A DNA stretch of 64,000 nt from Escherichia coli (GTDB taxonomy: Bacteria; Pseudomonadota; Gammaproteobacteria; Enterobacterales; Enterobacteriaceae), in NCBI RefSeq assembly GCF_024223415.1, contig NZ_CP100500.1; one strand, written 5' to 3'. Below are positions 25,334 to 25,647 of the stretch, piece by piece; the stretch's first letter is position 1, and each line of letters opens with the position of its first letter. Below the pieces are notes generated by a model. It worked only from the letters and a program-made list of their open reading frames with translations. It was not told the origin of the DNA and ran no database searches. The position numbers and the translations under genes are program-made.

Positions 25334-25551
25334 CATCCCTCTCATCCACGTTGTGGTAAAGCGGCGAGTATTCTTGCTGATACTCCTCATTGCTATTTCC
25401 ACCTCCCCCTTTACACCTTAAGGCTGTTCCCACGCACAAAACAAAATATTTATGCCTGGTTGAGTAAATAACCTTATTGTTAGTGTGGATATACTGGGAG
25501 ATGATAACCCCGCAATTTCATTATTCATTGTTCTCCCATAGGATGAGGTTT

Positions 25552-25577
25552 CCCGCCGTAACTGGCGGGCTTTTTTT
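25552..25577 (+). terminator. Orphan rho-independent terminator downstream of minE
   Basis: CCCGCC-gtaactg-GCGGGC followed by TTTTTTT. No track ORF of 60 aa or more on the + strand precedes it; it could end a small-protein gene (K-12 has ymgI/ymgJ hereabouts, sequences not recalled) or a small RNA. Confidence 0.55.
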
Positions 25578-25647
25578 ACCCCAGAATTTTCTCTTTTAAC
25601 ATTCTGTAAACGAAAACTGTGCCGAAGTGCAGTTTAATCGTTGATGG

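Follow-up and report, generated by a model that had tools for sequence, protein, structure and literature searches.

Hfq-dependent trans-acting sRNAs such as RybB, MicA, Spf, and MgrR are the closest described relatives of the RNA proposed in this study. Like members of this class, the proposed RNA would be about 66-76 nt long and would be made from an orphan unit between convergent genes. It also shares with them a G-C-rich terminator with a U7 tail, a U-rich stretch before the terminator, and a conserved, predicted single-stranded segment complementary to ribosome-binding sites. Classic core sRNAs are common to E. coli and Salmonella. Unlike these, the proposed RNA has a narrow range (only E. 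coli and E. albertii) and is too weak for Term-seq, and it has no name, Rfam model, mapped start, known regulator, or validated target.

A second group for comparison is found among the sRNA candidates of Bar et al. 2021 (PMC8175672), who re-scored the Hfq RIL-seq data from Melamed et al. 2016 (e.g., ybiJ.ybiC.IGR, narP.ccmH.IGR, fliC.fliA.IGR, and sieB.kilR.IGR). The RNA proposed here comes from the same data set and the same scoring, where it is taken to be the one labelled 'minE.ycgI.IGR'; its neighbors in rank in the stationary-phase table are narP.ccmH.IGR and fliC.fliA.IGR. While several of these candidates have been validated or named in that paper or elsewhere, 'minE.ycgI.IGR' is not mentioned in its main text. 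Most of the candidates share the terminator of the upstream mRNA, whereas the proposed RNA is preceded by the terminator of a separate mRNA and by a Rho site.

Type I toxin-antitoxin and cis-antisense pairs such as SymR/symE and Sib/Ibs form a third group. As in these pairs, the short terminated RNA proposed here lies exactly over the Shine-Dalgarno (SD) sequence and the start codon of a mini-ORF on the opposite strand. Unlike in these pairs, however, the opposite ORF is unconserved, not hydrophobic, and frameshifted in a major lineage, and the locus is single-copy with no conserved promoter for the ORF.

The locus was found in a 64,000-nt stretch of E. coli DNA (RefSeq assembly GCF_024223415.1, contig NZ_CP100500.1), referred to here as the window; coordinates are those of the window unless stated otherwise. 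Our interpretation starts from a terminator, strong conservation within clear bounds, no conserved ORF, and Hfq chimeras from this intergenic region of K-12, which is always the 3' partner. On balance, we favor the view that this terminator (T2 below) closes a small independent unit on the + strand between two other terminators (T1 and T3), and that the unit encodes an uncharacterized sRNA that depends on Hfq, is made in stationary phase, and is driven by a weak promoter within the unit. The proposed RNA is a new, uncharacterized Hfq-sRNA candidate of a well-known kind and not a new kind of element.

Terminators and gene layout of the minE-ycgI interval

The genes and terminators around the interval are as follows.

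23460-24170, + strand: minC
24194-25006, + strand: minD
25010-25276, + strand: minE
25301-25333, + strand: T1, intrinsic terminator of minCDE (hairpin 25301-25328, 12-bp stem and U5), included for context only
25552-25577, + strand: T2, orphan terminator (6-bp all-G-C stem, 6-nt loop, then C and U7)
25609-25637, - strand: T3, terminator of the autotransporter gene ycgI (hairpin at about 25615-25637, fold -7.7 kcal/mol)
25648-25992, - strand: ycgI, 3' remnant of a YpjA/EhaD-like autotransporter gene (pseudogene; K-12 and EC1515 annotations)
26107-26292, - strand: ymgJ (annotation)
26393-26566, + strand: ymgI (annotation)

An intrinsic terminator at 25552-25577 on the + strand, with no ORF of 60 aa or more before it, had been noted in a first-pass annotation of this DNA. 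Our terminator scan recovered it as a real hairpin with a U-run: the stem-loop (25552-25569) reads CCCGCC-GTAACT-GGCGGG with six G-C pairs, and the T's are at 25571-25577. No ORF of at least 60 aa exists in 25334-25647, where the longest are 45, 40, and 36 aa. By itself the T2 hairpin folds with -12.3 kcal/mol (z = -2.1). It is separate from the T1 hairpin, which is stronger (-19.8 kcal/mol, z = -5.5). GGUUU is located immediately 5' of T2, and together they form a 3' module of the Hfq-binding type. A Rho-independent terminator with a tail of about six or more U's, to which Hfq binds, is a criterion for Hfq sRNAs; T2 has these features and is conserved in 5315 of the 5426 genomes. In 3 kb, six terminator-like patterns were found compared to 3.3 +/- 1.6 in shuffled sequences. 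Since this is no more than about a twofold excess over the shuffles, the T2 pattern alone is weak evidence, and it is conservation that distinguishes T2. Variants of T2 are found in strain BH100N, where G25565A leaves a weaker stem (-5.4 kcal/mol), and in E. albertii, where the stem is cut to 5 bp and the U-run is longer.

On the minus strand, T3 reads ACUGCAC-UUCG-GCACAGU followed by UUUUCGUUU. It is located 11 nt past the ycgI stop codon and faces T2 convergently at a distance of about 40 nt. Two G-U wobbles in T3 of the window strain are G-C pairs in K-12, most other strains, and E. albertii. In the B2 strains SE15 and BH100N, two changes break pairs of this hairpin.

The annotation of K-12 MG1655 has no feature in the 371 bp between ycgI and minE, and no feature is annotated under the conserved core (see below) in the 40 RefSeq records listed. 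The interval is 100% identical to that of the urinary isolate EC1515. It had been suggested that T2 may close a small-protein gene, possibly ymgI or ymgJ. These two genes are in the same neighborhood, within 1 kb, but the K-12 and EC1515 annotations place both of them beyond ycgI and neither is upstream of T2. The order past ycgI is a 39-aa hypothetical ORF, ymgJ, ymgI, ymgG, and ymgD.

Conservation and distribution of the module

The interval was aligned among 10 E. coli strains spanning the identity range and E. albertii (alignment A1). The conserved module (25436-25577) is sharply bounded, and its flanks are barely alignable. The following segments can be recognized.

25334-25435, + strand: spacer, 78 of 102 columns invariant, 41% identical to E. 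albertii
25436-25497, + strand: upstream segment, 45 of 62 columns invariant, 73% identical to E. albertii
25498-25577, + strand: core, 76 of 80 columns invariant (10 E. coli), 90% identical to E. albertii
25578-25608, + strand: downstream segment, 21 of 31 columns invariant, 32% identical to E. albertii

Among the 10 diverse E. coli strains, invariant columns are more frequent in the core than in the pooled flanks (76/80 vs. 144/195, Fisher p = 2e-5). Homology with E. albertii detected by blast extends from 25436 to 25576 only, and the similarity to E. albertii and the invariance within E. coli both end where the U-run of T2 ends. Positions 25512-25577 are identical at all 66 sites in eight of the 10 diverse strains and at 65 sites in the other two; 63 of the 66 sites are identical in E. 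albertii. Elsewhere, the identity between E. coli and E. albertii is 91% for the minE coding sequence and 81% for ycgI, both below that of this 66-nt segment. The footprint of the module, about 76 nt followed by an invariant block that ends at the last U, is as expected for a + strand promoter and RNA gene.

A 73-nt part of the core is found as a single copy in 5315 of the 5426 RefSeq complete genomes. All carriers (5316 E. coli records) are at least 95% identical over these 73 nt; for the whole 384-nt interval, identity goes down to 80-90% in 383 records. The element is not found in 111 of the 5426 E. coli genomes and likewise in cryptic-clade Escherichia, indicating that it is dispensable. 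Searches with blastn and nhmmer of 80 loci found no homologue behind minE in other Enterobacteriaceae genera, and no second copy is found in the window or in the genome. As far as these searches tell, the element is restricted to E. coli and E. albertii. A mobile-element origin was considered and rejected: there are no phage matches, and the plasmid matches are only mislabelled E. coli chromosomal pieces or whole chromosomes.

In E. whittamii, two other Escherichia lineages, and E. coli GN4738, minE is followed straight by ymgI. In about 2% of E. coli and in cryptic-clade and E. whittamii genomes, the RNA, the autotransporter gene, and ymgJ are all absent between the minE terminator and ymgI (3054-3150 in locus L003 of E. 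coli GN4738, and 4265-4720 in loci L007, L009, and L011). The minE terminator differs in the cryptic-clade genomes. Strain 24AR0376 (locus L005, 3505-4682) has an IS3-family element inside the ycgI remnant, just past the RNA. In Escherichia sp. MOD1-EC7003 (locus L008, 4385-4474), homology breaks at about 25430 of the window, shortly before the end of the contig. Rearrangements thus seem to be frequent in this region.

The neighboring autotransporter gene is intact in ETEC4079 (1144 aa), exists as a long ORF of 910 aa or more in E. albertii, and is a stub in most E. coli. Since only a fragment of it is left in most strains and the core is invariant, the core has been retained during the decay of its neighbor. 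This bears on the idea that T2 is what remains, neutrally and with no present function, of the 3' end of a vanished gene. The element does adjoin a decaying gene, and it is missing in the genomes mentioned above. However, in the comparison of E. coli with E. albertii the core exceeds the minE coding sequence in conservation and its own flanks by a wide margin, and the RIL-seq data point to an association of the RNA with Hfq in vivo. We find a relic barely credible.

Small open reading frames

Three small ORFs overlap the core or the spacer. Over strains and on both strands, their lengths range from 14 to 69 aa. The ORF on the + strand continues through T2 and hence cannot be encoded by an RNA terminated at T2. 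The ORF on the minus strand has a good SD and AUG.

25418-25528, - strand: 36-aa ORF (MNNEIAGLSS...), with SD and AUG complementary to the proposed seed; unlikely to be a gene

Most changes in this ORF are non-synonymous; its first seven codons are conserved and the rest is free. A single-base deletion in SE15 causes a frameshift in the ORFs of both strands. The small ORFs of the interval have no match in NCBIfam, and no exact copy of the interval peptides was found in a collection of 15 billion proteins. The frameshift, the length variation, and the lack of matches to families or databases all make a coding role unlikely, and the suggestion that T2 closes a gene for some small protein other than YmgI or YmgJ is not supported either. 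The conservation of the SD and AUG on the minus strand is the mirror of the invariant + strand segment CAUUGUUCUCCC.

It could be argued that the + strand RNA and the minus-strand mini-ORF form a cis-antisense pair, in which the RNA controls the mini-ORF as in type I toxin-antitoxin systems or SymR/symE. The GGGAG, 4-nt spacer, and ATG of the minus strand are all within the invariant block, and all strains as well as E. albertii have kept the first seven codons of the mini-ORF. A type I system has a conserved small toxin ORF opposite the RNA, and no such ORF is found here. Past codon 7 the peptide is unconserved: it varies from 15 to 69 aa, it is frameshifted in SE15, and about half of its residues differ in E. 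albertii. The peptide also has no hydrophobic helix, family match, or database copy. Furthermore, there is no conserved promoter on the minus strand, where the corresponding segment (25578-25608) is the one with 32% identity to E. albertii, T3 is located upstream of the ORF, and Term-seq has no 3' end on either strand. All these observations make a cis-antisense pair highly improbable.

A probable Hfq-bound RNA from the interval

An RNA that is always second in RIL-seq chimeras carries the signature of an sRNA held on Hfq by its 3' end. In the stationary-phase part of Supplementary Table 1 of PMC8175672, 'minE.ycgI.IGR' has an sRNA score of 0.276, between those of RybB (0.292) and Spf (0.228), with 137 chimeric fragments, five partners, a SIC of 0.8, and a U-tract value of 7. 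In exponential phase, it has only 12 fragments and one partner. Because SIC is S - 1/k (PMC8175672), S is 1.0; that is, 'minE.ycgI.IGR' is always second (3') in the chimera, like the known Hfq-dependent sRNAs. The U-tract value gives the length of the longest run of U's found no more than 50 nt from the chimeric segments (PMC8175672). On the minE strand of the K-12 interval, the sole U7 run is that of T2, and T1 has five U's. The reads of 'minE.ycgI.IGR' are therefore tentatively assigned to T2, an assignment that rests on the U-tract value. From the gene order in the name, compared with other names in the table, we infer that the RNA is on the minE strand.

The suggestion of the first-pass annotation that T2 may close a small RNA is thus supported by both the conservation and the published Hfq RIL-seq data. 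There is no ycgI entry in the Hfq CLASH supplements and no entry in the TERMITe supplements. A search of Rfam with E up to 10 returned only noise (the best overlap, anti-hemB, reaches 12.9 bits at E = 9.5, far below its gathering score of 49.5). Literature searches by gene names and by the RNA sequence found no paper in the searched library that names the RNA, the sole trace being one line in a supplementary table, and no northern blot or mapped start site for it was found in the literature.

T2 may also be thought of as a mere back-up or insulator terminator, protecting the convergent autotransporter gene from an antisense run and leaving an RNA that has no function of its own. The convergent layout, with T3 opposite T2, is as expected for an insulator, and so is the low expression in three Term-seq conditions. 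For this purpose, however, a hairpin and a U-run would suffice, and the 40 invariant nucleotides upstream of the hairpin and the conserved 76 nt preceding them are left unexplained. The gene to be protected is a pseudogene fragment in most strains, yet the conservation is still kept. Hfq chimeras with five partners, always in the sRNA position, argue for a base-pairing RNA instead. We consider a simple insulator improbable.

Relation to the min operon

K-12 coordinates were converted as window coordinate = 25276 + (1224279 - K-12 coordinate), and the + strand of the window is the minus strand of K-12. Term-seq 3' ends reported by Adams 2021 at K-12 1224225/1224224 correspond to 25330-25331 of the window and are found at T1. 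In the same data (LB OD 0.4, LB OD 2.0, and M63 OD 0.4), there is no 3' end at K-12 12239xx on either strand. A transcript ending at T2, as called for by the first-pass annotation, is hence not seen there, and the RNA is rare or absent in those three conditions.

Adams 2021 also reported a Rho-termination region at K-12 1224064 (-), which is 25491 of the window (Rho score 24.9, p = 3.6e-67). Within 800 nt on each side of this point, there are 230 reads upstream and 18 downstream in untreated log phase, and 293 upstream and 571 downstream with bicyclomycin. The following segment is found just before this region.

25370-25450, + strand: C-rich, G-poor, rut-like spacer (C 33%, G 9%)

Transcripts that have passed T1 probably acquire Rho at this spacer. 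We read the counts to mean that transcripts escaping T1 are stopped by Rho just before the unit, so that the unit is nearly silent in growing cells, and that when Rho is inhibited RNA builds up from about 25491 onward, above the level of the min genes. It thus appears that the intrinsic terminator of the min operon is supplemented by a Rho site. Because a Rho region and a C-rich spacer separate T1 from the core, transcripts reading through from the min operon should rarely reach the core.

An sRNA produced by reading through from the min operon was the other form of the small-RNA idea in the first-pass annotation. Transcripts that escape T1 and Rho would reach T2, and the 66 nt would be the stable Hfq-bound 3' product, possibly processed by RNase E, of a long 3'-UTR sRNA of minE. 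The RNA shares its strand with minCDE and lies just 236 nt past the minE stop codon. The legend in PMC8175672 states that some IGR-labelled RNAs are really 3'-UTR-derived. The rise of downstream reads from 18 to 571 with bicyclomycin is as from read-through into a stable product that ends at T2, and the candidate promoter of the unit is weak. On the other hand, T1 is strong and has a 3' end mapped by Term-seq, and the rut-like spacer and the strong Rho region are located in between. The downstream reads with bicyclomycin exceed the upstream reads (571 vs. 293), which read-through alone does not explain. In E. albertii, the spacer that follows T1 resembles that of E. coli neither in sequence nor in length, yet the approximately 76 nt upstream of the RNA are conserved. 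Note also that 3'-UTR-derived sRNAs share the 3' end and terminator of their mRNA, and the 3' end of the min transcript is about 247 nt upstream of T2. We therefore keep the sRNA part of this earlier suggestion and doubt its read-through part; an origin from the min operon is unlikely.

A variant of this origin is that the output is gated by Rho. When Rho is low (stationary phase, stress, or bicyclomycin), transcription from min would read through and give a stable Hfq-bound RNA that ends at T2; as a second possibility, the RNA would also act in cis on the start site of the minus-strand ORF. We regard this as distinctly unlikely. If it is true, transcription of the min cell-division operon would be coupled to a post-transcriptional regulator. 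The position behind minCDE and a Rho site in any case raises the question of whether synthesis of the RNA is tied to the division operon.

In a filamentation screen (PMC6206680), enrichment is spread over the UTI89 equivalent of the minE-ycgI interval from minCDE. The authors of that study gave linkage to minC as a possible explanation for this enrichment.

Predicted promoter, structure, and mode of action

For the independent sRNA unit that we favor, we infer a start site, a promoter, a structure, a seed, and a direction of regulation. The putative parts of the unit are listed below.

25436-25511, + strand: presumed promoter region, about 76 nt, co-conserved with the RNA (68-73% vs. 32-41% for the outer flanks, E. 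albertii)
25461-25477, + strand: near-invariant 18-nt block TGAGTAAATAACCTTAT (alignment A1)
25477-25482, + strand: candidate -35 hexamer TTGTTA (from alignment A1), with a 17-nt spacer to the -10
25490-25495, + strand: alternative -10 hexamer TATACT, strain-variable
25500-25505, + strand: candidate -10 hexamer GATGAT, A2 and T6 invariant in all 11 sequences
25512-25577, + strand: proposed sRNA, about 66 nt, GCAAUUUCAUUAUUCAUUGUUCUCCCAUAGGAUGAGGUUUCCCGCCGUAACUGGCGGGCUUUUUUU (conservation; RIL-seq U-tract 7)
25514-25550, + strand: predicted 5' stem-loop, 9-bp stem 25514-25522/25542-25550 with three G-U pairs (MFE fold)
25523-25541, + strand: 19-nt loop AUUCAUUGUUCUCCCAUAG in the predicted fold, proposed seed

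The unit would thus consist of the promoter region of about 76 nt followed by the RNA of about 66 nt. With GATGAT as the -10, the start is predicted at about G25512, which is where perfect conservation begins. The 5' end of the sRNA would then be 25512, and it could also lie near 25502. TATACT is the better hexamer in K-12; among strains it is found as TACACT, TATCCT, TATCCA, and TATGCT, and it is CATTCT in E. albertii. The candidate -35 and -10 hexamers have four of six matches each, and a scan with the promoter consensus found no site with at least 9/12 matches over the presumed promoter. The promoter is therefore putative and weak. Because neither candidate passes the scan, transcription probably requires an activator or an alternative sigma factor, and sigma-S is a reasonable guess from the stationary-phase enrichment. 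Two regulator sites were considered and rejected. The best match to a Fur box over the start region is 10/19, which is background, and a PhoP-box-like repeat found by eye in K-12 (TGTTTA-N5-GGTTGA, 25449-25465) is conserved neither in E. albertii nor in the window strain.

In the predicted fold, the RNA has a 5' stem-loop, one unpaired U, and the terminator with its U7 tail. The MFE is -16.2 kcal/mol with a z of only -1.1, not better than shuffled sequences, and an MFE frequency of 4.6%. Since the RNA sequence is invariant, a covariation test is impossible. The loop segment CAUUGUUCUCCCAU is the exact complement of GGGAGAACAAUG, which consists of a Shine-Dalgarno sequence, a spacer, and a start codon. 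The RNA may thus be laid out as a 5' stem-loop that exposes CAUUGUUCUCCCAU, a U-rich linker, and a G-C-rich terminator with U7, which is the layout of an Hfq trans-acting sRNA.

Because the loop is the exact complement of an SD and a start codon, we propose that the RNA occludes initiation regions in trans with the help of Hfq. It would be made mainly in stationary phase and bound to Hfq via its 3' end, and its loop would pair with the translation-initiation regions of a few mRNAs, presumably leading to their repression. A target scan of the 64-kb window with RNAduplex gave a best energy of -38 kcal/mol, which is within the null of shuffled sRNAs (-35 +/- 2.8), with implausible structures. Allowing at most three mismatches, the pattern ATGGGAGAACAATG has three matches in the 64-kb window compared to 6.5 expected. 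No pairing was seen between the RNA and the start region of the intact autotransporter gene of ETEC4079.

In sRNA biology, K-12 serves as the reference organism, but neither its annotation nor Rfam includes this unit. A 66-nt RNA that is invariant across E. coli and nearly so in E. albertii, kept beside a decaying gene, and apparently found on Hfq in the sRNA position is a good candidate for characterization. If our interpretation is true, it would be a young, Escherichia-restricted, stationary-phase regulator added to the sRNA network. It is, at the same time, one more Hfq sRNA candidate, weakly expressed and dispensable. An orphan terminator together with a conservation boundary is an effective route to such genes.

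The ycgI-ymgJ region

In the intact locus (L094, 431-4195), ycgI corresponds to the final 345 nt of the gene for the 1144-aa autotransporter. There, the autotransporter gene is directly preceded, on its own strand, by ymgJ and the 39-aa ORF. This arrangement suggests that ymgJ may be a leader or the first gene of the autotransporter operon and not a stand-alone small-protein gene.

A chimera of ArcZ with 'minE.ymgJ.IGR' in RIL-seq data of EPEC was considered as a second trace of the proposed RNA and rejected, because it maps in ycgI, on its antisense strand, at about 25848 of the window. This chimera was found 22 times with an odds ratio of 2710 and covers about 25848-25860 (+), that is, the minE strand. 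EPEC has CCAGGG there, which is complementary to the ArcZ seed, and the window strain has CCACGG.
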